Shown here in pieces: positions 339-57,275 of a stretch of 64,000 nucleotides of DNA (the first letter of the stretch is position 1; each line of letters starts with the position of its first letter). The notes under the pieces are model-generated. The model saw nothing but the letters and a program-made list of their open reading frames with translations. It was not told the DNA's origin and did no database searches. The position numbers and the translations under genes are program-made. Origin of the DNA: Patescibacteria group bacterium (lineage in GTDB: Bacteria > Patescibacteriota > Patescibacteriia > Patescibacteriales > UBA12075); NCBI GenBank assembly GCA_022705905.1, contig JAKJDO010000001.1, positions 28,692-92,691 of the forward strand, in the 5' to 3' direction.

Positions 339-772
339 ATATAAAAAATGAATTTGTGAGCCTAATGTTGAGCCCCATCCCTAAGAATTTGTTTAGTGTT
401 CATTAAACTATAATGGACAAGAAAATCCCGTTCTCAGGGGTAGTTTAAGGAGCTTTCCCTAATGGCTTTTTACCGGTCAATGGCAAGTTCTAATTTTTGT
501 TTTTTATTTTTTTTAAAACCTGCCTTTATTTTGTTTTTGTTTTTTTGCTTTTTTGACTAGTAAAAAGCAGAAAAATATATCCTGAAAAAATATTTAGATA
601 CATTTTTCTATAATTGATGTAAAACAGCGTACCTAATTATGTCTATTTATAGTATACCATATATTTTTAATCGGGTCAATAAAAAATAATAGACAAATAT
701 TAGCTTATATTAAATAATTTAATTTTATTTTACAACTTTAAGTACACTTTAATTTAGACAAAAGTTGTCTAT

Positions 773-801
773 TTATCCACACAACCCACCTTTTATCCAC
801 A
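773..801 (+). promoter_or_regulatory. Two perfect DnaA boxes (TTATCCACA at 773-781 and 793-801) in direct orientation, 20 bp apart, flanked by the palindromes tagacaaaagttgtcta and tagtctattattatttagacta.
   Basis: Exact match to the DnaA-box 9-mer consensus, read directly in the sequence. Confidence 0.5.
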
Positions 802-935
802 CAAAAACTTTAGTCTATTATTATTTAGACTAAAAAACCAGCAAAAAACTGACTAGCTAGTCTTGAAGCATTTTCCCCTAGACGCTAGGTCAGGAAAAAT
901 TCAATGATTATAGAAGAGTTTTCTGTAAAATTTGA

Positions 936-1006
936 GGTCTGGACCGGATTTGAACCGGTGAATAACAGTTTTGCAAACTGTTGCCTTACCGCTTGGCCAC
1001 CAGACC
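936..1006 (-). tRNA. tRNA-Cys (anticodon GCA).
   Basis: Cloverleaf folded by hand. Acceptor stem is GGTCTGG/CCAGACC, anticodon loop is TTGCAAA, and the T-arm is ACCGG-TTCAAAT-CCGGT. Confidence 0.8.
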
Positions 1007-1106
1007 ATAACATATTTTTAATATTAGCAAAAACTATGTTAAAAAACAAGTAATAAAAAATACCCGTTTCCGGGGTATATAAAAGGAATAACCTTTTTTA
1101 GGCCCT

Positions 1107-1652
1107 TCAAGGCGCAGCCAAAATCTCAACTTTTAATACTTTTATGCCAAATATTTTAGCCTCTTCCCTGTCTTTAAACCAAATATCAATATAATCATTA
1201 TAACGCGGGTTCATTCTATCTCTAACCACAAACACTTTATCGCCAAAGACGTCCGGCATCTTTATTTTTGTCCCAAAAGGCAAAAAATTAGCTGCTACCG
1301 AATCTTCGATGCCGTGTTCACACAAATTAAAACCATTGGCCGTCCGACAAGGATCGCCATCAGTTTGCCAAACATCAGAGGAATAAGCTGTAACCTTAAA
1401 AAAACCGCTCCTAGCAATTAATAAATCACCGTTCTCTGGCAAAAAATTCAATATTAGCAGGTCGTCGTCAGCAACAATTTGTTCTTCGGCTAACAACGAC
1501 GCTTGACCATCTTCATTAATTTGGCTGGCTAAAACTGGGACGGGATAAAGAATGAACTCGAAAACAACTAAAAAAACCAAGGACAAAACTATTTTCTTCC
1601 ACGTTTTTTTTGATAAAAATATATTATTTTTTTGTCTGTCTGGGGACGACAT
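1107..1652 (-). CDS. Secreted 3D-domain protein (MltA/YuiC/YabE-like peptidoglycan lytic-transglycosylase fold) with an N-terminal signal/TM segment.
   Basis: Hydrophobic N-terminus. The C-terminal block VTAYSSDVWQTDGDP...VVRDRM...IDIWF carries the three spaced Asp residues typical of the 3D domain. Confidence 0.55.
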   Translation of the reverse strand: MSSPDRQKNNIFLSKKTWKKIVLSLVFLVVFEFILYPVPVLASQINEDGQASLLAEEQIVADDDLLILNFLPENGDLLIARSGFFKVTAYSSDVWQTDGDPCRTANGFNLCEHGIEDSVAANFLPFGTKIKMPDVFGDKVFVVRDRMNPRYNDYIDIWFKDREEAKIFGIKVLKVEILAAP

Positions 1653-1860
1653 ACTTTATATAAAACAGTAAAAATAACTAATATTGCAAACAAAAAACCC
1701 TATCTCCAATAATTTTCCTTGGATGAATAGGGATTCTCTTGCTTCTATTTATATCATATCATACCAGGCGATAAAAGTCAACGAAATAATAGACTTAATA
1801 GATAAAAAAGAAGTCTAAAAAATGAAAGATAGACTTCTTCTTGTATTTTAAATTTTATAA

Positions 1861-2391
1861 TTAAAAACAATTTGGATCATTCATGCACTGCTGCAGCCCA
1901 CTAGGGACTTCTTCAAAAGTAGTTTCTGTCCAAATATCTGAAAAACTCCAACTGCTCCACCATTCAGAAAAGGACCATCCGCCGCCCGATCCAGAGCTAG
2001 AACTAGTGTCAACTGCGCCAGAACCGAATGGTATGGCATTAAATACAAAATATGTTATGGAATAAGCGGCTACGATAATAACTAAGCCAATCACGGCTTT
2101 AGTTATTGTGTCTTTAGCCTTAGTTACTTTTTGTTCATCGCCGCTGGCCGTCATCCAATTGAAGCCGGCATAAATTATAAGAATAACAAAAATTATGCCC
2201 AATATGCTTAAAAACCCCTGGATAACAGCCGCCATAATTGACCCTACATTTTCTGTCGTGCTAAAACCGCTGCGGCTGACAAAGCGATCATATTGAGTGT
2301 CAGCTAAAACCGCATTAAATAAAAACAAGCTCAAAACAAAAAGAAAAATAAAAATTTTTAACTTAATTTTATTGTTTTTGATAGTAAGCAT
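1861..2391 (-). CDS. VirB2/TrbC-like (T4SS-type) pilin paralog 1. It has a signal peptide, a variable ectodomain, two TM helices and a Trp/Ser-rich Cys-containing C-terminal tail.
   Basis: Core LSILGIIFVILIIYAGFNWMTASGDEQKVTKAKDTITKAVIGLVIIVAAYSI is shared by all seven tandem genes. Confidence 0.6.
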   Translation of the reverse strand: MLTIKNNKIKLKIFIFLFVLSLFLFNAVLADTQYDRFVSRSGFSTTENVGSIMAAVIQGFLSILGIIFVILIIYAGFNWMTASGDEQKVTKAKDTITKAVIGLVIIVAAYSITYFVFNAIPFGSGAVDTSSSSGSGGGWSFSEWWSSWSFSDIWTETTFEEVPSGLQQCMNDPNCF

Positions 2392-2400
2392 AAAAAATTG

Positions 2401-2787
2401 TTAATTTTGTCTAGACATCATAATAACGCCAACCACCAATTGGCCAATGGCGTAAGCGCCGGCTGTAATTATCAGGCCGATTATGGCGCGCTGGATGGTG
2501 CTTTTAGCCTTGTCTACTTTAGAGTTATCTCCGGCCGCCACCATCCAATTATAACCGCCATACAAGATTAAAACTGTAAAAATTATGCCTAATAATGAAA
2601 ATAAAACTTTAACAATGTCGCCGGCCATTTCAGCGGCCGTATATTCCGTCGCGGTCTTATAACCGCTGCTTGACTGCACCTTTTCCAGCTTATTTAACGC
2701 GGCGCTTTGCGCAAACACAAAATAAGGCAATATTAAAATTGCCACCAGAAACAAAAGATAAAAACTATTTTTTATTTTTTTACGCAT
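2401..2787 (-). CDS. VirB2/TrbC-like pilin paralog 2.
   Basis: Signal peptide plus the conserved core LLGIIFTVLILYGGYNWMVAAGDNSKVDKAKSTIQRAIIGLIITAGAYAI. Confidence 0.6.
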   Translation of the reverse strand: MRKKIKNSFYLLFLVAILILPYFVFAQSAALNKLEKVQSSSGYKTATEYTAAEMAGDIVKVLFSLLGIIFTVLILYGGYNWMVAAGDNSKVDKAKSTIQRAIIGLIITAGAYAIGQLVVGVIMMSRQN

Positions 2788-2822
2788 GATTTTAACTAAA
2801 TAATTAATAGACGCTCACTTTT

Positions 2823-3254
2823 TTAAGAAGTTAAAGAGCGTTCATAGGGCGCCACTATATTCATAACTATAAAATAAGTAATGGCATAGGCGGCAACCAC
2901 GATAACCAGGCCGATAACCGCCTCAGTTATTAAATCCTTACCCTTGGCCACCTGCTGCTCCTTGCCCATGGCTGTCATCCATAAATAACCGCCGTAAACT
3001 ATTAAACAAATAAATATTATCCCCAAAAATGATAAAAATATATTTATTATTCTGGCAACAACAAATTCCGGTGTCGTCCCTGTCTGATAGCCGCTGGCTG
3101 CCCTGGTGTAGCCAAAAGGCGTTTCCAGACTGACGCTAAAAGCGTCTTTCAAATTAATGGCCTGCGCCGCCGAACCGAACAAAAAACATATAAAAACTAT
3201 AAAGATGATGTAGCTAAAACTTCTCTTCATAATTGCTAAAATCAATATGATCAA
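2823..3254 (-). CDS. VirB2/TrbC-like pilin paralog 3.
   Basis: Conserved core FLGIIFICLIVYGGYLWMTAMGKEQQVAKGKDLITEAVIGLVIVVAAYAI. Confidence 0.6.
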   Translation of the reverse strand: MIILILAIMKRSFSYIIFIVFICFLFGSAAQAINLKDAFSVSLETPFGYTRAASGYQTGTTPEFVVARIINIFLSFLGIIFICLIVYGGYLWMTAMGKEQQVAKGKDLITEAVIGLVIVVAAYAITYFIVMNIVAPYERSLTS

Positions 3255-4287: not shown

Positions 4288-4680
4288 TTAAGGGGTCGGG
4301 TTGCCAACGATGTTGTAAGCGAAGCCAACAACGATCTGAACGATGGCGTAAGCAGCGATAATGATGACTAAACCGATAATACCGGCGATAATAGTCTTTT
4401 TAGCCGAACCAACTCTGTCTTCATTGCCGCCAGCAGTAAGCCAAAGGAAGCCTCCGTAGAGGATTACGATAACGGCGATAATGCCCAAGAAAGTCATCAA
4501 ATAAGTGACGATATTAACTGCGGCCTCTTTTGGATCGTTGACGCTACTTGGTAAACCGAAATCGGCATCATTTATACCCAAAGGGTCAGTCGCTAGGGCG
4601 GGCAAGGCAACTAAAAGAGCTGGCATAATCATCGCTAATAAAGCCACGGCTGCCAATGCATTTTTAAATGTTTTTTTCAT
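4288..4680 (-). CDS. VirB2/TrbC-like pilin paralog 6.
   Basis: Conserved core FLGIIAVIVILYGGFLWLTAGGNEDRVGSAKKTIIAGIIGLVIIIAAYAIV. It is the closest paralog of gene 7. Confidence 0.6.
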   Translation of the reverse strand: MKKTFKNALAAVALLAMIMPALLVALPALATDPLGINDADFGLPSSVNDPKEAAVNIVTYLMTFLGIIAVIVILYGGFLWLTAGGNEDRVGSAKKTIIAGIIGLVIIIAAYAIVQIVVGFAYNIVGNPTP

Positions 4681-4793
4681 AATTTTTGACCTTTTAAATT
4701 AGTTAATAAATTTGACCTTTTTTTATATATTTATTAAATTTTTGCTATTGATTATTAATATCTAGATATAAACAATGTGTTTGTTTTTTTATT

Positions 4794-5174
4794 TTAGGCG
4801 CCGCTAAGCACGTTCATAGTCGTACTCACGATTATTTGAACTATAGCATAGGCTGAAATAATTATCACGAGTCCGATTAATCCGGCAATAATTGTTTTTT
4901 TGGCATCAGCAATTTTATCTTCATTGCCGCCAGCCACCATCCATTTAAAACCGCCCAGTAAAACTACAACTACGGCGATAATGCCCAAGAAAGTCATCAA
5001 ATACTTAACGGTGTTAACTGCTGCCGCTCGGGGATCACTGACTGAATTAGGCAGGCCTAAACTGCCTGCTTCATTCAATCCTAGATCGGCTTGGGCTTGA
5101 ACAGCTACCGCTAAAGCAGGAAAAATTATTAAAGCTAATGCGAGAGCTAAAAATAAATTAATTTTTTTGATCAT
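4794..5174 (-). CDS. VirB2/TrbC-like pilin paralog 7.
   Basis: Conserved core FLGIIAVVVVLLGGFKWMVAGGNEDKIADAKKTIIAGLIGLVIIISAYAIV. A G-rich RBS (gggaagggggtgagtc) lies just before the ATG. Confidence 0.6.
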   Translation of the reverse strand: MIKKINLFLALALALIIFPALAVAVQAQADLGLNEAGSLGLPNSVSDPRAAAVNTVKYLMTFLGIIAVVVVLLGGFKWMVAGGNEDKIADAKKTIIAGLIGLVIIISAYAIVQIIVSTTMNVLSGA

Positions 5175-5460
5175 GACTCACCCCCTTCCCGAATTTCTTC
5201 TGCTTGAAAAGAGACTTTTGGCATTTTAAAACAGAAAAAATTATTACTTATTTAGTTATCAACATTAATAATATTTTAACACTTTTTTTGTCAAAAAACA
5301 AATAATAGTGGTAAAATATAGCTGAATGGAAAAAATCTGCGGCTTCCGGCTAGGTTTTGCCTCGCGCCAAGCGAAGGAGTCGGTAGAATAAAGAAACTAT
5401 AGGCGGATAATCCAGCTGCTTCCTGTTTTTTTCTTTAATTTTTTACTATCTTATTATTTT

Positions 5461-7101
5461 GTGAAAAAAAATACCGGCAACATAATAATCTGGTCTTTGT
5501 TTTATAGCTTTGTTTTTGTTTTCCTTATTTATAATTCTTTTAGCTATCTTGACCCGGATTTAGGCTGGCATCTGAAAGTAGGCCAGCAAATAGCGGCCGA
5601 ACGAGCCGTCCCGGGTCTGGAAAATTACAATTATACATTGTCAGGTAAAAGTTGGGTTGATCATGAATGGCTAGCGAACCTGATTATTTTTCTAATCTAT
5701 GACCAGTTCGGCTACCTTGTTTTATCCGCGTTGTTTGCCCTGTTAATAATTCTGATTTTAATAATTCTAAACAGACAAATAAAAAAAATATGCCGGCAAT
5801 CTACCGAAAATTCTGCTTGGCTAACAATAATTATAATAATTTTAGAAATCCTGGGTGTGATAGCCGTCGCGCCGCATATTGGCGTCAGGATACAAGAAGT
5901 AGGGCTATTGTTTCTATTGCTGCTTCTGTTGGTTATCCAAAAATTTGAATCTGCTAAAAACTGGAAAACACTGTTATGGCTGCTGCCAATTTTATATTTT
6001 TGGTCTTGTTTGCACGGCAGTTTTTTAATCAGTCTTTTTATTTTAGGTTTTTGGATTTTTATAAAAATTATTGAGCGGCTGATTGCCGCCCGCTTTGGCT
6101 GTCGCCGTTTTTATTTTTTGAACTTTGAAAATAAAACAACTTGGCTGGACATAAAAAATTTCGCCTGGCTGGCATCAGCAGCTATAGCTAGCACCTTTTT
6201 TACTCCCTATGGTTTTAAGCTATATTCCTTTTTAGCCGACTATACTGATAATTTCTATGCTGAACATATTGTTGAGTGGCTGCCGGTTTTTACTTTTCCC
6301 TTTTCTTACGCGCAAATGTTTTACCTGTCTACGGCTATAGCCGTTGTCTTGATTTATTGCCTTAACTTTCACTATTCTCGAAAAAAAAACATCGCCTTCA
6401 CTCCTTCAATAAACCTCTGGCAGCTAGGCCTCTTTTTTGTTTTTTTGTTTTTAGCTTTTAAGTCACGACGTCACTTCCCGCTTTTTTTTATTGTCTCTCT
6501 ACCCATTATAGTGCAAATAATTTTTAATGAATTTCAATCGGCCAAAATTAACTTCAATCTTTTTAGAGGCTTTTTAATTAAATTTTATTTGCTGTCAGCC
6601 ATACTGCTGGCGGCAGCTGGATTAATTTTAAAAACTAATTTTACCAACGAACCATTTTTAAATAAAAATTTTTGCCAAACCTACCCCTGCGCCGCCATTA
6701 ATTTTCTAAAAAATAATGGCCAATATTCCAACCTGCGCTTATTTAACGATTATAATTGGGGCGGTTTTATGATTTGGACCTGGCCGGGGAAAAAAATATT
6801 TACAGACGGTCGTCTGCCACAATACCCCTACAATAATCATACCCTCCTAGAGGAATACTATGCATTTTTTGACGAGAAAAAAACAGAGGAGCGACTAGAC
6901 CAACATAACATTGAGCTCGTCTTGCTAAAAATAGAAAAACCACGAAAAATAAAAAGGTGGGAGCAAATAGTCTTCGGAATCAAAGATAGAGAGACTAAAA
7001 ATAATTTATCTAATTATTTAAGTGGCGCTAAAACATGGCGCTTGGTTTACACGGATGATATTAGCCAAATTTATGTTAAAAATAACAACGCCAATCAATA
7101 G
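5461..7101 (+). CDS. Polytopic membrane protein with more than 10 predicted TM helices and a C-terminal soluble domain. This is probably a GT-C fold glycosyltransferase or an oligosaccharyl/mannosyl-transferase-like protein.
   Basis: The hydrophobicity pattern is visible in the translation, and the gene sits in a glycosylation gene cluster. A promoter-like TTGTCA-18-TAAAAT lies at about 5296-5325. Confidence 0.4.
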   Translation: MKKNTGNIIIWSLFYSFVFVFLIYNSFSYLDPDLGWHLKVGQQIAAERAVPGLENYNYTLSGKSWVDHEWLANLIIFLIYDQFGYLVLSALFALLIILILIILNRQIKKICRQSTENSAWLTIIIIILEILGVIAVAPHIGVRIQEVGLLFLLLLLLVIQKFESAKNWKTLLWLLPILYFWSCLHGSFLISLFILGFWIFIKIIERLIAARFGCRRFYFLNFENKTTWLDIKNFAWLASAAIASTFFTPYGFKLYSFLADYTDNFYAEHIVEWLPVFTFPFSYAQMFYLSTAIAVVLIYCLNFHYSRKKNIAFTPSINLWQLGLFFVFLFLAFKSRRHFPLFFIVSLPIIVQIIFNEFQSAKINFNLFRGFLIKFYLLSAILLAAAGLILKTNFTNEPFLNKNFCQTYPCAAINFLKNNGQYSNLRLFNDYNWGGFMIWTWPGKKIFTDGRLPQYPYNNHTLLEEYYAFFDEKKTEERLDQHNIELVLLKIEKPRKIKRWEQIVFGIKDRETKNNLSNYLSGAKTWRLVYTDDISQIYVKNNNANQ

Positions 7102-8506
7102 CAACAACAAAATTTTGTCTTCCTTGAATATTTACCGGCTATTCTTCTGGATTTTCCTGTCTCTTTTAACCGTCTTACTCCACTCCAAACATTATATTGA
7201 TATTGACGAAGGACATGTTTTAGACGGAGCTTGGAATTTACTTAACGGTAAAAAACTATATTTTGATTTTTTTGAGTTTACCCCTCCTGGCGCTTATTAT
7301 TTAGTGCTTTGGTTATGGCAAATATTCGGCGTTAATTATTTAGTAGCTAAAATCGCGTCTTTAGCCGCGCTACTTCTAGCCGCGCTTGGTATTTATAAAA
7401 TTTGGTCGGCTGTAAGCCGCTATTTTAACATCAGCCGAGATTCTGTCTCTATATATCTAAGCATTTTTATTTTTATAATTTCCACCACCCACCTACCGAC
7501 TATCAGTTACCATACCTTCAATCTCGCTTTTACTGTCTGGGCGGTTTATTTTTTTATAAAAGCGCTCTCGATCCAGCCAAATAAAAATATTATTTTTTTT
7601 TCCGGATTGCTAACTGGCGCAGCTGCTCTATTTATGCAAAACAAGGGCGGTGCTCTGTTTTTAACCTTATTCTTATTTACCCTTTTTTTATTAATTAAAG
7701 AAAGAAAAAAAATATGGCTGCAATCATTGCTAATTTTATCAGTTGCGACGACACTGCCGATTATAACCCTGGCGGCTTTCTGGCCAGTTGGTTTGCTTTT
7801 TAAAAATTTAATCGCATTCCCGATATTTAACTACACCAAAGTGGCAATGGTTCCTTTTTATCTACTCTTTTTCTTTATTATTGTCTGGACGGGTGTTATT
7901 TGGCTGCTTAGAAAAAAAACCGCCACCGCCATACAATTTCTTTTTTTCTGGCAATTTATTTTGTTGTTTTCTATTTATTCTTTGGCCGACCATGCGCATC
8001 TATTGCTAGCTATATTCCCACTACTGGCGCTACTACCCGCTGTCCTTAATGAAATCAAAACGTCAATTTACAAAAATTATTTTTTTATCCTGACGGTGGT
8101 AACTATTTTTATCATTGTCTATCCCGCTCTTGTTTTTCTTAACAATTTTAAAAATTTGCCAACTGCAAAAGATTATAAATTTTTAGATTATATTGCCGCT
8201 AACTGCGACAAAACAGAATATTTATACGCCGGGCCGTTTATGTGCGGAATTTATTTTGAAACTCGAAAAATAAACCCAACGCCTTACGGCTGGCTTATTA
8301 CCAACCACCACACCGACGACCAATTTACCGACGCTAAAGAAAAATTAGAAATAAACACTCCAGCTTGCGCAATTTTAAATTACCAATTAGTCAAAAAATA
8401 TGGCTATAACATTGACAATCCGGTAGACAATTTTATTAAAGAGAACTATTATTTAGCTTATACCAGCAATGATGTAATGGTTTATAAAAAAAACCAACCA
8501 CAATAA
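7073..8506 (+). CDS. ArnT/PMT-family (GT83/GT39-like) GT-C membrane glycosyltransferase.
   Basis: A DE-type first-loop motif (DIDEGHVLDGAWNLL..PPGAYY) is followed by multiple TM helices. The ORF track starts it at 7022, overlapping the upstream gene. Internal Met codons at 7055 and 7073 are more likely starts, which implies translational coupling. Confidence 0.5.
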   Translation: MLKITTPINSNNKILSSLNIYRLFFWIFLSLLTVLLHSKHYIDIDEGHVLDGAWNLLNGKKLYFDFFEFTPPGAYYLVLWLWQIFGVNYLVAKIASLAALLLAALGIYKIWSAVSRYFNISRDSVSIYLSIFIFIISTTHLPTISYHTFNLAFTVWAVYFFIKALSIQPNKNIIFFSGLLTGAAALFMQNKGGALFLTLFLFTLFLLIKERKKIWLQSLLILSVATTLPIITLAAFWPVGLLFKNLIAFPIFNYTKVAMVPFYLLFFFIIVWTGVIWLLRKKTATAIQFLFFWQFILLFSIYSLADHAHLLLAIFPLLALLPAVLNEIKTSIYKNYFFILTVVTIFIIVYPALVFLNNFKNLPTAKDYKFLDYIAANCDKTEYLYAGPFMCGIYFETRKINPTPYGWLITNHHTDDQFTDAKEKLEINTPACAILNYQLVKKYGYNIDNPVDNFIKENYYLAYTSNDVMVYKKNQPQ

Positions 8507-50149: not shown

Positions 50150-50707
50150 TTAATCGTTACGATTGAATAACACCATATTATATCTTCCACCCTGTTTTGT
50201 CAAGTCCTGCTCAACGCCCAAATTCAAACCCTCTCTGGTCTGTAAATGTTTTACAAAATCTCTGATTGTTTCAGCGCCCTTCTCTGGAAATTGCTTTTCG
50301 CGCCCTTTAAGCATCAGCTCTATCTTCAATTTATCGCCTCTTTTTAAAAATTTCTCTGCCTGCTCAGCGCGCATTTCTGAATCATGCTGGCTAATTCTAA
50401 CTGACAGTCTAACGCATTTTAATTCCACTTTTTTCTGCTGAACTTTCTGCTTATGCGCCTTCTTTTCCTGCTCGTATTTAAATTGACCGTAATCCATTAT
50501 CTTAACCACCGGACATTCGCCTTTAGGATTAACTTCAACTAGATCCGATTCTGCTTCACGCGCCATTGCTAATGCTTCTTGAATACTAATCCGACCTCGA
50601 TTTTCTCCATTTTCATCAATCAGAAAAACCTCGGGTACACGAATTTGTTCGTTGACCCTAAATCGTTTTTCTTCGGTTGGTTTCGCTTTTTTCCAAGTTC
50701 TACGCAT
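50150..50707 (-). CDS. infC: Translation initiation factor IF-3.
   Basis: INEQIRVPEVFLIDENGE.. and the infC-rpmI-rplT gene order. Confidence 0.85.
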   Translation of the reverse strand: MRRTWKKAKPTEEKRFRVNEQIRVPEVFLIDENGENRGRISIQEALAMAREAESDLVEVNPKGECPVVKIMDYGQFKYEQEKKAHKQKVQQKKVELKCVRLSVRISQHDSEMRAEQAEKFLKRGDKLKIELMLKGREKQFPEKGAETIRDFVKHLQTREGLNLGVEQDLTKQGGRYNMVLFNRND

Positions 50708-51017
50708 AAAATGAGTGGCTACCCGCCAATTGGGCGGGCTCTCGACCTTGGCAAGGTCGCCCTTTAACTAAAGTGTTATTTAAAATCTTTTGGAGATCTT
50801 CTCTGCCGTGTCCAGTCTTAAAAAATCTTTCTCTTTTTCTTGCATCAATCTCATCTATAAACGCTTCGGCAAATATCAATTTGAACAATCTTCTATTTCT
50901 AGTAGATTCATTCGCTCCGTCGTTATGTTTTTTAATTCTTTCATCTAAATTTTCTGTGTAACCAATATATAATTTTTTATCTTTCAAACTTCTTAAGATG
51001 TAAACGTAATAAAACAT
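50700..51017 (-). CDS. GIY-YIG nuclease-family small protein. Its C-terminal tail reads through a tRNA-Gly-derived repeat.
   Basis: MFYYVYILRSLKDKKLYIGYTENLDERIKKHN motif. The gene is wedged between tRNA-Gly and infC. Confidence 0.6.
   Translation of the reverse strand: MFYYVYILRSLKDKKLYIGYTENLDERIKKHNDGANESTRNRRLFKLIFAEAFIDEIDARKRERFFKTGHGREDLQKILNNTLVKGRPCQGREPAQLAGSHSFYA
50739..50760. repeat. 22-nt exact duplicate of the tRNA-Gly anticodon-arm region (ctctcgaccttggcaaggtcgc; tRNA copy at 51061-51082) plus an adjacent pseudo-T-arm (cccgcc-aattg-ggcggg).
   Basis: Exact match seen in the sequence. It lies at the distal end of the GIY-YIG gene. Confidence 0.55.
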
Positions 51018-51323: not shown

Positions 51324-51794
51324 ATGTCAGCCTTAGCAGTCAACAAAAGAGCCAATTTTGATTATGAAATAACCGACAAACATGAAGCCGGCATCGTTCT
51401 TTTTGGCCATGAAGCCAAATCAATCAAAACCGGGCACATCAGCCTAAAAGGGGCTTTTGTTACCGTAAAAAATACAACCAAAAACCTGCCGGAATTATAT
51501 CTGATCAACGCGCACATACCTCTTTATGCTAAAGCTAGCACTGTCAAATCATATGATCCTACGCGACCCAGAAAATTACTCCTGCACAAAAATGAAATAA
51601 ACAAATTAATTGGCAAGAAACAAGAACAAGGATTAACCTTGGTGCCGATCAAAATTTATTCTAAGCACAGTTTGATAAAACTAGAATTCGGTGTCGGCCG
51701 TGGCAAAAAAAAGTTCGACAAAAGAGAGGTGATAAAAAAACGCGAGGTTGATAAACAAATTAGAACTTTGACAAAAACGAAAGCAAGAAAATAA
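51324..51794 (+). CDS. smpB: SsrA-binding protein.
   Basis: MSALAVNKRANFDYEI..GIVLFGHEAKSIK. The gene is followed by tmRNA. Confidence 0.85.
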   Translation: MSALAVNKRANFDYEITDKHEAGIVLFGHEAKSIKTGHISLKGAFVTVKNTTKNLPELYLINAHIPLYAKASTVKSYDPTRPRKLLLHKNEINKLIGKKQEQGLTLVPIKIYSKHSLIKLEFGVGRGKKKFDKREVIKKREVDKQIRTLTKTKARK

Positions 51795-51800
51795 CCTACT

Positions 51801-51866
51801 GTCATCCTGAACGAAGTGAAGGATCTCGCAATTAAAAACAAGATTCTTCGCTTTGCTCAGAATGAC
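51801..51866. repeat. MITE-like inverted-repeat element. Arm gtcatcctgaacgaagtgaaggatctcg, 12-nt spacer, inverted arm agattcttcgctttgctcagaatgac. It lies between smpB and ssrA.
   Basis: The two arms are imperfect reverse complements and belong to the GTCATYCTGAGCG family. Confidence 0.5.
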
Positions 51867-51874
51867 AAAAATAC

Positions 51875-52254
51875 GGGGATGATAGGATTCGATAATAATG
51901 CCATCTAAAAACATTCGGAACGTGCCTGACACCACGCAAATCTGTCAAAAACAATAAGTGCAAAAAACTTATTAGCAAAAGCTATGGACGCTTTCCGCGC
52001 ACCAGCTTTCGCTCCTGTTCTTGCCTAAAAACGCAAGAGCCATCCGTCCAGTCAGGCCTGATAGCTGGTCACGGGTGTCATAACATCGGGCTTAGTTTAT
52101 AAAGACGTTCTGATTTATAGACAAAATTAAAGAACTAGCTATTATCGGTTTTGTTTAGTTTTCTACGTTAGTGGTTAAATTCCAAACTAAACTATTTCCG
52201 TAAATATGTTTTCTAGATTATTATTAGACGCGGGTTCAACTCCCGCCATCTCCA
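51875..52254 (+). ncRNA. ssrA: tmRNA (ssrA).
   Basis: 5' GGGGATGATAGGATTCGA and 3' GACGCGGGTTCAACTCCCGCCATCTCCA form the tRNA-like domain. An internal tag ORF (..AKAMDAFRAPAFAPVLA*) spans about 51975-52026. The gene is immediately downstream of smpB. Confidence 0.85.
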
Positions 52255-52270
52255 CTCGGTTTTAAAAAAG

Positions 52271-52304
52271 AAAAGGCGGCTCGCTGAGAACCGCCTTTTT
52301 TTGT
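52271..52304 (+). terminator. Terminator after ssrA: aaggcgg-ctcgctgagaa-ccgcctt followed by tttttt.
   Basis: 7-bp GC stem plus T-run. Confidence 0.6.
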
Positions 52305-52344
52305 TCATCAGTCTGCATACCGTCTGGCACGGCTGCTCGACTAC

Positions 52345-52698
52345 CTACTTGTATAAGATTTTGAGCGTGCCTGTTGGTATGTTGGCTGCCTCCACTTCGC
52401 AGGCACTCCTTATCTGCGGCGGTTCGCTACCGCCCGGCGAAAAGTACCATTTCGCAGCAATCTGACTCGCGAAACTGGGAGTAAGGCAAAAAACACACGC
52501 GTTGCGCCCAGACAGAGCCGGACTGATGATCGAGATCGTCTGGTACGTGACGTCGTATCCGACGATCTGACCAGTTATCGTTCTCTCCTCGCTATCGCCC
52601 CGTCTCCGATAAGAATAGGTAAAATTCTTTCCCACTGCCTCGTCAACTGGCGGCAACCCAACCCTCCTCAGAAACTCATCTATCTTTGTCTTATCCAT
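52345..52698 (-). CDS. Hypothetical 117-aa protein encoded by a GC-rich (about 52%) segment that looks compositionally foreign.
   Basis: RBS gagaggag + 7 nt + ATG. Composition differs sharply from its surroundings. It sits between ssrA and tRNA-Leu. Confidence 0.4.
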   Translation of the reverse strand: MDKTKIDEFLRRVGLPPVDEAVGKNFTYSYRRRGDSEERTITGQIVGYDVTYQTISIISPALSGRNACVFCLTPSFASQIAAKWYFSPGGSEPPQIRSACEVEAANIPTGTLKILYK

Positions 52699-52848
52699 TA
52701 TGAGCTCCTCTCTTAGAATGTTCGAATCTTAAAATACTATAGAAAAGCATTAATTATGTCAAGTTTGCATAAACTTGCCAAAACTAAAAACATCGGCTAC
52801 AATAATTTTGAGCATGACCTGCTTATTTTTTATTAGGAAGTCAAGCTT

Positions 52849-52932
52849 GCCGTGGTGGCGGAACTGGTAGACGCGCTGGACTTAAAATCCAGTTGTGGCG
52901 ACACAGTGAGGGTTCGATTCCCTCCCACGGCA
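52849..52932 (+). tRNA. tRNA-Leu (anticodon TAA) with a long variable arm.
   Basis: Manual fold. Acceptor GCCGTGG/CCACGGC, anticodon loop CTTAAAA, T-loop GGTTCGATTCC. Confidence 0.85.
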
Positions 52933-52935
52933 CAA

Positions 52936-52968
52936 AAAAAAGAGAGACCAACTTTGACCTCTCTTTTT
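52936..52968 (+). terminator. Terminator after tRNA-Leu: agagag...ctctct followed by tttttt.
   Basis: Inverted repeat plus T-run. Confidence 0.45.
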
Positions 52969-52981
52969 TATTCTTAAAAAT

Positions 52982-54268
52982 TTATTTTTCTACATTCCAT
53001 TCTTTCAGCTTATTAACTACTTTCTTACTAGCAAAAACGTTATAGACATAATTTAAATATTCCGGTGAATGAAGCTTTTTTAGAACTTCTTGATTGTCAT
53101 GATAATGTTTTTTCATTTCAGCAACGTGCTTTTCGACTTCCTCTTCTTCGACTTTGATATTTTCCCTTTCAGCAATTTCTCTAATTAGTAGAGACGCCTT
53201 TACTCTCTTAACCGCTTCTGGCAATAAATCTAGCATTAATTGATCGTGAGTTTTTTTGATGCTAGCTAAATAGTCCTCAAACTTACCACCCTGCTCGGCA
53301 ATGGTATGTTCTAGTTCATGAACCATATTGTGACTTTCATGTTCGATCAACATTTCTGGCAAATCATTAATTCTGGTTTTCTCTAAAATTTTTCCCAAGA
53401 TTTCTTTTTCTAAAACCTGTTCAGCCTCTTTATCTTTTTGATCAACAACGCTCTTCTTAACATTATTCTTAAAGTCTTCAAATTTCTTTAATCCAAAGGC
53501 ACTAGCAAAGTCATCGTCAAGCGCTGGCAGCTCTCTTTTATAAACTTCTTTAATTGTCACTCGGAAATCTACCATTTTACCAGCCAAATTTTTCATATGG
53601 AAATCAGCCGGATATGGCAGTTCAAATTCGCGCACGTCGCCCTTTTTAGCACCAATTATTTTTTTATCAAAGCCAGGGACAATATAATCTTTACCGACTA
53701 CAATCGCCGCATCTTTACCTTGCCCGCCCTCAACCGGCACTTTATCTAAAAACATAGCTAGGTCAACTAAAACCTTATCTCCGTCTTTTACTTCCTCGTC
53801 AGATAAAATTTCCTTAACGCGCATTTCACGTAAATCATTTAGAATTTTATTTATTTCCTCGTCTTCTACTTTTACCTCTTTCTTTTTTATTTTTAAATCT
53901 TTATACTCGCCTAATTTTATTTCTGGTAACACGGCTACAATGATTTTAAATTCTAAAGGATTGCCTGGTGCTAATTTGGTAATTTCAACTTTCGGTTGTC
54001 CGACAATTTGCCTCTCAATATTGTCTTTCAAAATCTGGTCGATGTTCTTGTGAATAGCTAAATTAGCTGCTTCTTCTAGAATCGTCATGTCGCCTATTTT
54101 CTGACGCAAAATGTCTATTGGCACATTACCAGGACGAAACCCATCAATCTTCACCTCCCGAGATACGTTCTTCGCGCCTTGTTCATAAAATGGCTTTAAT
54201 TCATCATAAGTCATCTCCACCGCTAGCTCAAATTGTGATTTCCCCAAATCTTTTTTTTCTATTTTCAT
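52982..54268 (-). CDS. tig: Trigger factor.
   Basis: N-terminal ribosome-binding domain (GFRPGNVP), PPIase and C-terminal domains. Length is 428 aa. Confidence 0.85.
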   Translation of the reverse strand: MKIEKKDLGKSQFELAVEMTYDELKPFYEQGAKNVSREVKIDGFRPGNVPIDILRQKIGDMTILEEAANLAIHKNIDQILKDNIERQIVGQPKVEITKLAPGNPLEFKIIVAVLPEIKLGEYKDLKIKKKEVKVEDEEINKILNDLREMRVKEILSDEEVKDGDKVLVDLAMFLDKVPVEGGQGKDAAIVVGKDYIVPGFDKKIIGAKKGDVREFELPYPADFHMKNLAGKMVDFRVTIKEVYKRELPALDDDFASAFGLKKFEDFKNNVKKSVVDQKDKEAEQVLEKEILGKILEKTRINDLPEMLIEHESHNMVHELEHTIAEQGGKFEDYLASIKKTHDQLMLDLLPEAVKRVKASLLIREIAERENIKVEEEEVEKHVAEMKKHYHDNQEVLKKLHSPEYLNYVYNVFASKKVVNKLKEWNVEK

Positions 54269-56501: not shown

Positions 56502-56844
56502 TAAATTAATGAAAAAGGCTAGTTTATCTATTGATAACTAGCCTGAATGCCTCTTTATAATATCACGTCCCTGACTACTTGTCAAATTTAAAACAATATG
56601 ATAGCATTTACTTTGATAGTCAGAGACGACTATTTCTTTTTTTCAAGTCGGTTTTTCTATAAAATTTTAGCTGAGCGGCAGTCTTGTCTGGCTGCAATCC
56701 CACTGGAGATGAAGAATGGTTAGTTTAATTAACTGCCCTCAAAAACTTGCCAGGCTCGTCTTGCGTGTCGTGCGGGAAACGCCGCCCTGTCAAGGTCTAC
56801 AAATAAATTTATAAAATACACCTAATTAATAAAACCTTCAGCGC

Positions 56845-56919
56845 GGAGTGGTAGTTCAGTTTGGTTAGAACGCCGCCCTGTCACGGCGGAGGTCGCGGGT
56901 TCGAGCCCCGTCCACTCCG
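56845..56919 (+). tRNA. tRNA-Asp (anticodon GTC), flanked by an extended inverted repeat (ccttcagcgc...gcgctgaagg) and followed by a T-run.
   Basis: Manual fold. Acceptor GGAGTGG/CCACTCC, anticodon stem CCGCC/GGCGG with loop CTGTCAC, T-loop GGTTCGAGCCC. Confidence 0.8.
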
Positions 56920-57275
56920 CGCTGAAGGTTTTTTATTTTGGCGAGTCACGGTGGTAAGGATCTGTCTCGTTTGCCCGCCCAAAGCCGCAAGTATTTGCGA
57001 CGAGAGTAGTCTGCTCCATAAATGATAAAATGGTCTCAATAAAAAAACCTTTTTTGTTTTAATGGAGATCTTAATCAAAAGATGTTAAAATAAAAACAAA
57101 GTTAATTTAAAAAACATGCTACTAATAATAATCCTAATCATTTTTATCCTGATGGCTGGCGCTGCAATTTATCTTGGCGCTAAAGAAGACGAGAAAAAGA
57201 AAAAATAATTTTCAAAAAGACGACATAAAAAAACAACCTCAGAATTTTAAGGCTGTTTTTTTTATTAAAAATTTA

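Follow-up and report, generated by a model that had tools for sequence, protein, structure and literature searches.

The window examined in this study, a 64-kb stretch of DNA from a member of the Patescibacteria, is matched with 100% identity by contig MWBG01000060 of Parcubacteria group bacterium ADurb.Bin316. The genes for transfer-messenger RNA (tmRNA, ssrA) and tRNA-Leu(taa) in this window are separated by a spacer of 593 nt, which corresponds exactly to the region 52255–52848 singled out in a preliminary description of the same DNA. The only open reading frame (ORF) of at least 60 amino acids (aa) within 52256–52848 is a GC-rich gene for a protein of 117 aa. It is located on the minus strand, which the preliminary description left unstated, and is convergent with the tmRNA gene. 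We suggest that this gene probably goes back to an old, single insertion that is specific to one clade and has been inherited at the same site since. The features of the locus are listed in Table 1.

The ORF has a GC content of 0.520, as opposed to 0.371 in the window and 0.34–0.40 in the neighbouring genes (z = 3.2 against the distribution of 354-nt segments). Among all 354-nt segments, the GC-richest one starts at position 52310 (GC 0.545). The gene between ssrA and tRNA-Leu is thus GC-rich, as initially claimed, and coincides with the GC maximum of the window. All three codon positions depart from the usual composition (GC 0.475/0.483/0.593). At third codon positions (GC3), the value of 0.593 compares with 0.354 ± 0.045 (maximum 0.459) for the 33 window ORFs of at least 200 aa, a difference of about 5 standard deviations.

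All homologues of the gene occupy the same site, in one small Parcubacteria clade. The order tRNA-Leu(taa)–ORF–tmRNA–smpB is present in loci L001, L002, L014, and L015. Beyond tRNA-Leu, tig follows in L001, L014, and L015, and nusA together with the DHH-family gene in L014 and L015; the full syntenic string reads nusA-DHH-tig-tRNA-Leu-ORF-tmRNA-smpB-tRNA-Gly-infC. The spacers that contain the ORF measure 593 and 567 nt. One further homologue is located on a contig of 647 nt (L003). Upstream of this homologue, at positions 1–125, the 5' end of tRNA-Leu occurs twice, ~95 nt apart (CCAGTTCCGCCACCACGGCA and CCAGTTCCGCCACCCGGGCA), with a GC-rich piece of ~85 nt in between. No tRNA was identified in this piece by ARAGORN or Rfam, and its fold does not stand out from shuffled sequences (z = -1.1). 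The duplicate may be a recombination scar or a pseudo-tRNA.

Loci of sister lineages were fetched by SmpB similarity (SmpB 62–75% identical). The loci with the ORF group together in a single clade when SmpB is used for a neighbour-joining tree, while the sisters are either empty at this site or carry a gene of the 23S_rRNA_IVP family (PF05635; IVP gene below). The spacing between ssrA and tRNA-Leu in related genomes, a comparison proposed in the preliminary description, amounts to 5–162 nt in sisters that hold no gene here, versus 593 and 567 nt with the ORF. The tree and the empty sisters point to an ancestral state with tmRNA directly before tRNA-Leu. Several different occupants were found at the junction (Table 1). 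In L116, the gene for a tyrosine integrase ends inside the tmRNA 3' end and is followed by a RepA-like AAA_25 gene; judging from this arrangement, an element has integrated at the ssrA gene of this related Parcubacterium. The GC content of this element, 0.35, is host-like. The copies of the tmRNA 3' end downstream of ssrA in L106 and L101 look like att-like scars of past integration or excision. Given the empty sisters and the diversity of occupants, the tmRNA/tRNA-Leu junction is a genuine insertion hotspot in this clade, and the gene would have been inserted into it once, long ago. The view of the ssrA 3' end as an integration hotspot is thereby borne out by the empty sisters, the IVP genes, the L116 integrase, and the L101 and L106 copies.

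The tmRNA gene itself has also been interrupted in one relative (L107, 4142–4834; SmpB 68% identical). It measures 693 nt instead of the usual ~385 nt, and the insertion of ~300 nt encodes an 88-aa GIY-YIG protein (PF01541, 1.2e-17). By its position, this insertion resembles an intervening sequence within tmRNA.

Table 1. Features of the window around the tmRNA/tRNA-Leu spacer and state of the same junction in sister loci.
Sequence	Feature	Position or spacing (nt)	Strand	Basis or remark
Window	infC		-	First in the local gene order
Window	GIY-YIG gene	50700–51017	-	Between infC and tRNA-Gly
Window	tRNA-Gly		-	Between the GIY-YIG gene and smpB
Window	smpB	51324–51794	+	
Window	tmRNA (ssrA), tag AKNLLAKAMDAFRAPAFAPVLA	51875–52255 (/7)	+	ARAGORN; Rfam RF00023, 149 bits; 3' end borders the inserted segment
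Window	Hairpin with U/A runs on both sides	52268–52300	Both	Terminator scan; inverted repeat
Window	Gene for the 117-aa orphan-family protein, 354 nt including stop	52345–52698	-	ORF list; dN/dS; same-site homologues
Window	Shine-Dalgarno sequence GAGAGGAG	52705–52712	-	6 nt before ATG; read from sequence
Window	Promoter-like TTGACA-17-TAGTAT for the ORF	52734–52762	-	Promoter scan and alignment
Window	Promoter-like TTGCCA-17-TACAAT facing tRNA-Leu	52775–52803	+	Promoter scan; inside the inserted segment
Window	tRNA-Leu(taa)	52849–52933	+	ARAGORN, Rfam; other border of the segment
Window	tig	52982–54268	-	Beyond tRNA-Leu
Window	DHH-family gene		-	Beyond tig
L110	Empty	Spacing 5		
L118	Empty	Spacing 19		
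L104	Long AT-rich hairpin, 36-nt arms	3061–3147; spacing 87		
L105	Long AT-rich hairpin, 36-nt arms	4420–4516; spacing 97		
L106	Last 19 nt of tmRNA repeated exactly 52 nt beyond the gene	1701–1719; spacing 162		
L103	23S_rRNA_IVP gene (PF05635)	1245–1678; spacing 434		Flanked by 33-nt inverted repeats
L115	23S_rRNA_IVP gene (PF05635)	4539–4994; spacing 456		Flanked by 48-nt inverted repeats
L116	Tyrosine integrase gene (PF00589, 1.7e-32) and AAA_25 gene abutting tmRNA	4405–7415		No tRNA-Leu detected in the ~3 kb covered downstream
L101	Last 21 nt of tmRNA repeated (20/21 identical) 150 nt beyond the gene	3206–3226		Contig ends

The ORF shows the substitution pattern of a protein-coding gene. 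The ratio of nonsynonymous to synonymous substitution rates (dN/dS) is 0.16 between the window and L001, 0.09 between the window and L003, and 0.19 between L001 and L003; 38 of 57 and 59 of 102 changes fall at third codon positions; and the sole internal indel, a 3-nt deletion in L003, keeps the frame. Since the changes are codon-periodic, the indel is in frame and homologues exist, the ORF is a genuine protein gene under purifying selection.

In an AT-rich genome, an island of high GC content often turns out to be a structured RNA. This one is the GC-richest segment of the window, it is placed between two RNA genes, and its single-sequence folds are moderately better than those of shuffled sequences (z = -2.7 and -3.1 for the plus and minus strand, respectively). 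The idea of a structured non-coding RNA with an incidental ORF is nevertheless scarcely tenable and, in the light of the codon-periodic changes, the low dN/dS and the in-frame indel, already largely refuted. Near the spacer, tmRNA and tRNA were the only RNA families detected by Rfam at the gathering threshold in a search of the whole window, and a search of 52200–52900 with E up to 10 yielded nothing but noise in the spacer. RNAalifold analysis of the codon alignment of the four lineages gave a structure conservation index of 0.36 (sense) and 0.29 (antisense), no better than in codon- and column-shuffled control alignments (z = -1.0 to -1.5). Most synonymous sites are free to vary. Conserved RNA structure was also considered as a cause of the GC3 excess and is excluded by the same four-lineage analysis.

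The window protein is annotated as 'hypothetical protein BWY51_00897'. A protein search returned three clusters, namely the window protein, P0002 (85% identity), and P0003 (68% identity). Exhaustive HMMER search over 1.84 billion cluster representatives added only P0004 (~40% identity), and a search with the four-sequence profile revealed no further homologue. Among about 15 billion proteins, the family is thus represented by only four sequence clusters (four clusters in 5.8 billion sequences and two representatives in 1.84 billion). No match to Pfam, PHROGs, NCBIfam, or PADLOC was obtained with the single sequence or with all four members, in agreement with the earlier statement that the protein belongs to no recognisable family. 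Homologues were also absent from the IMG/VR, phage, and plasmid collections. By these searches, the family has no relative elsewhere among about 15 billion proteins and appears to be a new orphan family. Neither the DNA nor the protein sequence of the ORF displayed similarity to the rest of the window; by this lack of self-similarity, the ORF did not originate from a duplicate of the tmRNA gene or of a tRNA gene.

The protein contains three Cys residues, of which C68 and C71 (CVFC) are invariant. About 40 residues are invariant in total, including the motifs GLPP, RRxG, CVFC, and WYxSxGGS. As read from the sequence, there is no signal peptide and no hydrophobic or transmembrane segment, and the charge is near-neutral. 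AlphaFold2 modelling with the four-sequence alignment (pLDDT 84, pTM 0.78) gave a structure with one helix at the N terminus, about seven strands, and a further two short helices; a compact fold is confidently predicted. Foldseek comparisons with PDB and viral models did not return any match with E ≤0.001 (best 0.02), and TM-scores were ≤0.44 among the matches listed (50 per library). The best PDB profile match, to the FHA domain of RNF8 (E = 0.05, 28 residues), was rejected; the window protein contains no His and therefore lacks the Ser/His motif of FHA domains. The N-terminal helix, the bent strands, and the proximity of tmRNA also brought Sm-, LSm-, and SH3-like small beta-barrel RNA-binding proteins into consideration. 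The purifying selection suggests that the protein does something for the cell.

Long ORFs arise easily in GC-rich DNA, since stop codons are AT-rich. An origin de novo in situ, from a GC-rich spacer or from foreign non-coding DNA, would agree with the extremely narrow taxonomic range of the family, its lack of homologues elsewhere, and the fast evolution of the protein. Such an origin appears improbable in view of the compact fold confidently predicted from only four sequences, the strong purifying selection, the numerous invariant residues, and a full set of expression signals that is already common to all lineages.

These signals comprise a Shine-Dalgarno sequence (SD), a promoter, and a terminator, and occur together with the purifying selection and the in-frame indel described above. 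The SD, 6 nt before ATG, accounts for the strong ribosome-binding site that had been reported for this 354-nt, Cys-containing gene. It is kept with small changes in L001, L002, and L003, and in L014 the motif GGGGGA precedes an internal ATG. In the alignment, the -35 element of the putative ORF promoter is invariant across all four lineages, and so is the promoter block facing tRNA-Leu. The hairpin between the tmRNA gene and the ORF could serve as a shared bidirectional intrinsic terminator, which by its U/A runs can terminate both tmRNA (plus strand) and ORF (minus strand) transcripts. A counterpart hairpin of different sequence was found in L001 and L014. The promoter, SD, ORF, and terminator would form a self-contained transcription unit.

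The GC excess of the gene is as large in the relatives as in the window. The ORF and its surroundings have GC contents of 0.53 versus 0.35 in L001 and L002, and of 0.495 versus 0.375 in L014, and GC3 is 0.56–0.62 in all four lineages versus 0.27–0.40 in the flanking genes. In comparisons of the window with L003 or L014, synonymous divergence has reached saturation (proportion of synonymous differences 0.71–0.83), and different codons are used at 31 of 40 invariant residues. If a foreign gene drifts in a host with AT bias, most of its GC excess should be lost. The high GC3, kept across saturated synonymous divergence, is therefore not a fading foreign signature. The inferred changes in the window and L001 lineages, 20 from GC to AT and 21 from AT to GC, constitute a weak test. 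These data are suggestive of a GC-rich composition that is maintained and not fading. We infer that the GC-rich codon usage is held by selection and is not a leftover of foreign origin.

Several observations weigh against a single insertion followed by simple inheritance. The ORF protein shares 85% aa identity with that of L001 but only 39% with that of L014, whereas the corresponding values are 92 and 86% for Tig and 84 and 80% for SmpB. Between the window and L001, dS of the ORF is 0.59, below that of tig (1.14) and of the saturated smpB. These numbers do not fit strictly vertical descent with a constant rate. A sliding comparison of the window with L001 revealed a tract of 93–100% identity at 53225–52627, against a background of 65–88%. 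The directional test of composition is only suggestive (p = 0.017 for all positions; 15:10 at third positions, not significant). Finally, the SmpB neighbour-joining tree carries no support values, and only four lineages are known, mostly from short metagenome contigs.

Part of this unevenness may be due to homologous recombination. The tract of high identity, which suggests a recent recombination event between lineages, extends from the 3' end of tig across tRNA-Leu and the two promoters into the initial 70 nt of the ORF. The ORF blocks of L001 and L002 are 98.3% identical, while beyond tRNA-Leu one locus continues with tig and the other with tRNA-Gly. The identity tract and the difference in the L001 and L002 flanks make it likely that relatives have exchanged DNA by homologous recombination near the conserved RNA genes.

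A more radical explanation would be that the copy in each lineage was separately replaced by one from an unsampled gene pool of higher GC content, for instance that of the phages or elements of these bacteria. Homology arms would have been provided by the conserved 3' end of tmRNA on one side and by tRNA-Leu or its promoter on the other. Replacement would explain both the persistent 50% GC and the uneven divergence, that is, the 39% ORF identity to L014 between flanks at 80–86%, the dS in the ORF that is lower than in the flanks in the comparison with L001, and the high-identity tract around tRNA-Leu. It also agrees with GC values at first, second, and third codon positions that all resemble a genome of ~50% GC, and with the mosaic state of L003, which has a leader like that of L014 and an ORF like that of the window. 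We consider this scenario rather unlikely, since searches of about 15 billion proteins and of the IMG/VR, phage, and plasmid collections revealed no copy beyond this locus. Besides, all four lineages retain the -35 element of the ORF and its spacing to the promoter of tRNA-Leu, and the relationships of the ORFs (the window nearest to L001, then L003, then L014) are consistent with those of the flanks. Old insertion with subsequent inheritance at the site thus remains the reading we prefer.

One metagenome contig, L005 (JGI sample 3300026159), counts against this reading at first sight. Its positions 1–621 are 99.8% identical to window positions 52847–52227 but are joined, at 622–3118, to a tmRNA (tag ANTRTYSALPLAA) and corA of Anaerolineaceae. 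Its corA is 73% identical to that of a metagenome-assembled genome, and the tmRNA-corA synteny is common to relatives. When metagenome contigs were scanned for the exact pattern of the L005-type tmRNA, 0 matches were obtained, and the nature of the junction was addressed through the adjacent corA. The host part has ~52% GC, like the ORF. Taken literally, the contig would testify to a real transfer from Parcubacteria to Anaerolineaceae, and the gene would be a minimal cassette without integrase that is still mobile, enters genomes at the 3' end of tmRNA by recombination via this nearly universal sequence, and owes its GC-richness to selection on the cassette. We consider this highly improbable. 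The junction is located inside 29 nt that are identical in both tmRNAs, and the other end of L005 is one base short of tRNA-Leu. Contig L096 from the sister sample 3300026153, which represents the same Anaerolineaceae species (99.8%), stops exactly where the tmRNA gene ends. L005 also contains the AT-rich promoters of the Parcubacteria segment, and the window shows no att duplication. The contexts listed, from 22 contigs encoding the identical protein, are Parcubacterial in nine of ten cases. An assembly chimera is expected to end at cross-genome repeat nodes, as L005 does on both sides, and by these marks L005 very probably is one. Cross-genome junctions inside conserved tRNA or tmRNA ends of metagenome contigs can be mistaken for gene transfer.

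The survey for traces of an integrative element in the window was negative. No integrase gene was found in the inserted segment, and its neighbours are smpB and tig. The 24-nt tmRNA 3' end occurs only once in the 64 kb, even with 3 mismatches allowed, so that the search for a direct repeat of the ssrA 3' end proposed in the preliminary description produced no second copy. Nor was any meaningful att-like or bounding direct repeat detected in 51800–53000. The site is empty in related genomes and the composition of the gene is host-unlike, as typical of islands, yet the excess is equally large in every lineage. By its behaviour, the gene is a one-gene islet at ssrA that lacks two defining features of an island, the integrase and the att repeats. 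The preliminary description, which saw here a remnant or minimal cargo of an integrative element, had named in advance what would speak against it, namely relatives with the same gene and composition at this site and no att-like repeats. Formally, this is what we found. An insertion of atypical composition stands; a recent or decaying one does not, given the absence of integrase and att, the purifying selection, and the persistent GC3. Since a relative (L116) has an integrase at the same site, the original vehicle may have been an integrase-type element that used the ssrA 3' end, with the integrase and att copies lost later.

Tyrosine-integrase islands at the tmRNA 3' end have been described in Dehalococcoides (PMC3146451, PMC2764846), and tmRNA and tRNA genes are general targets of islands (bioRxiv 10.1101/2020.11.02.365908). 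The locus resembles ssrA islands in its position directly 3' of tmRNA, its atypical composition, and its variable presence among relatives, and in having same-site relatives with an integrase (L116) and with tmRNA 3'-end copies (L101, L106). Unlike ssrA islands, it possesses neither integrase nor attL/attR in the window, comprises one gene and 0.6 kb, and is fixed in the clade, under purifying selection and without compositional decay.

A second point of comparison is the 23S_rRNA_IVP family. Its members are four-helix-bundle proteins whose genes are located in hairpin loops of stable-RNA transcripts. The IVP genes of L103 and L115 encode proteins of similar size (~117–120 aa) in the same tmRNA/tRNA-Leu spacer, between inverted repeats of 33–48 nt where empty relatives have a long hairpin. 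This architecture is that of 23S rRNA intervening sequences, here placed between tmRNA and tRNA. The window protein is unrelated to this family; none of the four members matches PF05635, and the predicted structure is mostly beta. Its gene is oriented the other way behind a putative promoter of its own, has no long inverted repeat around it, and is GC-rich, while the IVP inserts are AT-rich (spacer GC 0.30–0.34).

With ORFans of the Patescibacteria (candidate phyla radiation) the gene shares the confinement to a narrow clade and the small hypothetical product without outside homologues. It departs from them in a GC3 ~5 standard deviations above the genes of the genome, which persists across saturated divergence. 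Such a persistent GC3 excess is not a usual property of native orphans.

Taken together, these data are best explained by the following history. The ancestral locus would have been a tight smpB-tmRNA-tRNA-Leu(taa) unit, probably co-transcribed. A single insertion would have entered the common ancestor of ADurb.Bin316 (the window genome), L001/L002, L014, and probably L003, followed by inheritance at the same site with some homologous exchange among close relatives. The insert may have brought, or later evolved, the tmRNA terminator and a new promoter for tRNA-Leu, and this promoter within the inserted segment would now drive tRNA-Leu. On the minus strand, a sigma-70-type promoter would direct synthesis of a short leader with a strong SD and of the 117-aa soluble protein. 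Transcription of the ORF would end at the hairpin that also terminates tmRNA from the opposite side.

Other RNA genes of the window have additional material next to them. The GIY-YIG gene adjacent to tRNA-Gly encodes 105 aa (PF01541, 9.7e-16) and overlaps the start of infC by 8 nt; in L014, tRNA-Gly and infC are separated by 38 nt without this gene. It is a second small insertion adjoining an RNA gene, less than 2 kb from the ORF. An exact 15-nt copy of the anticodon-arm region of tRNA-Asp (AACGCCGCCCTGTCA) is located ~90 nt upstream of tRNA-Asp (56845–56920), the copies of this region being at 56774–56797 and 56867–56889. A GC-rich stretch (GC up to 0.545) around and after tRNA-Asp (56920–57060) contains no ORF of at least 70 aa, and Rfam detected no RNA family in 56700–57060. 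L014 has a gene for a 316-aa Zn-ribbon protein between dnaN and tRNA-Asp, which is missing from the window.

The junction described here is a known kind of hotspot that holds a new orphan family; it opens no long-standing question, and its interest is modest. Within one clade it occurs in six states: an empty hairpin, an IVP gene in the loop, an integrase element, att-like scars, a GIY-YIG gene inside tmRNA, and the GC-rich orphan. The GC3 of the latter is ~25 points above that of the genome, which simple amelioration of foreign DNA fails to explain. The streamlined genomes of symbiotic Patescibacteria would thus still gain and keep single genes at stable-RNA genes.

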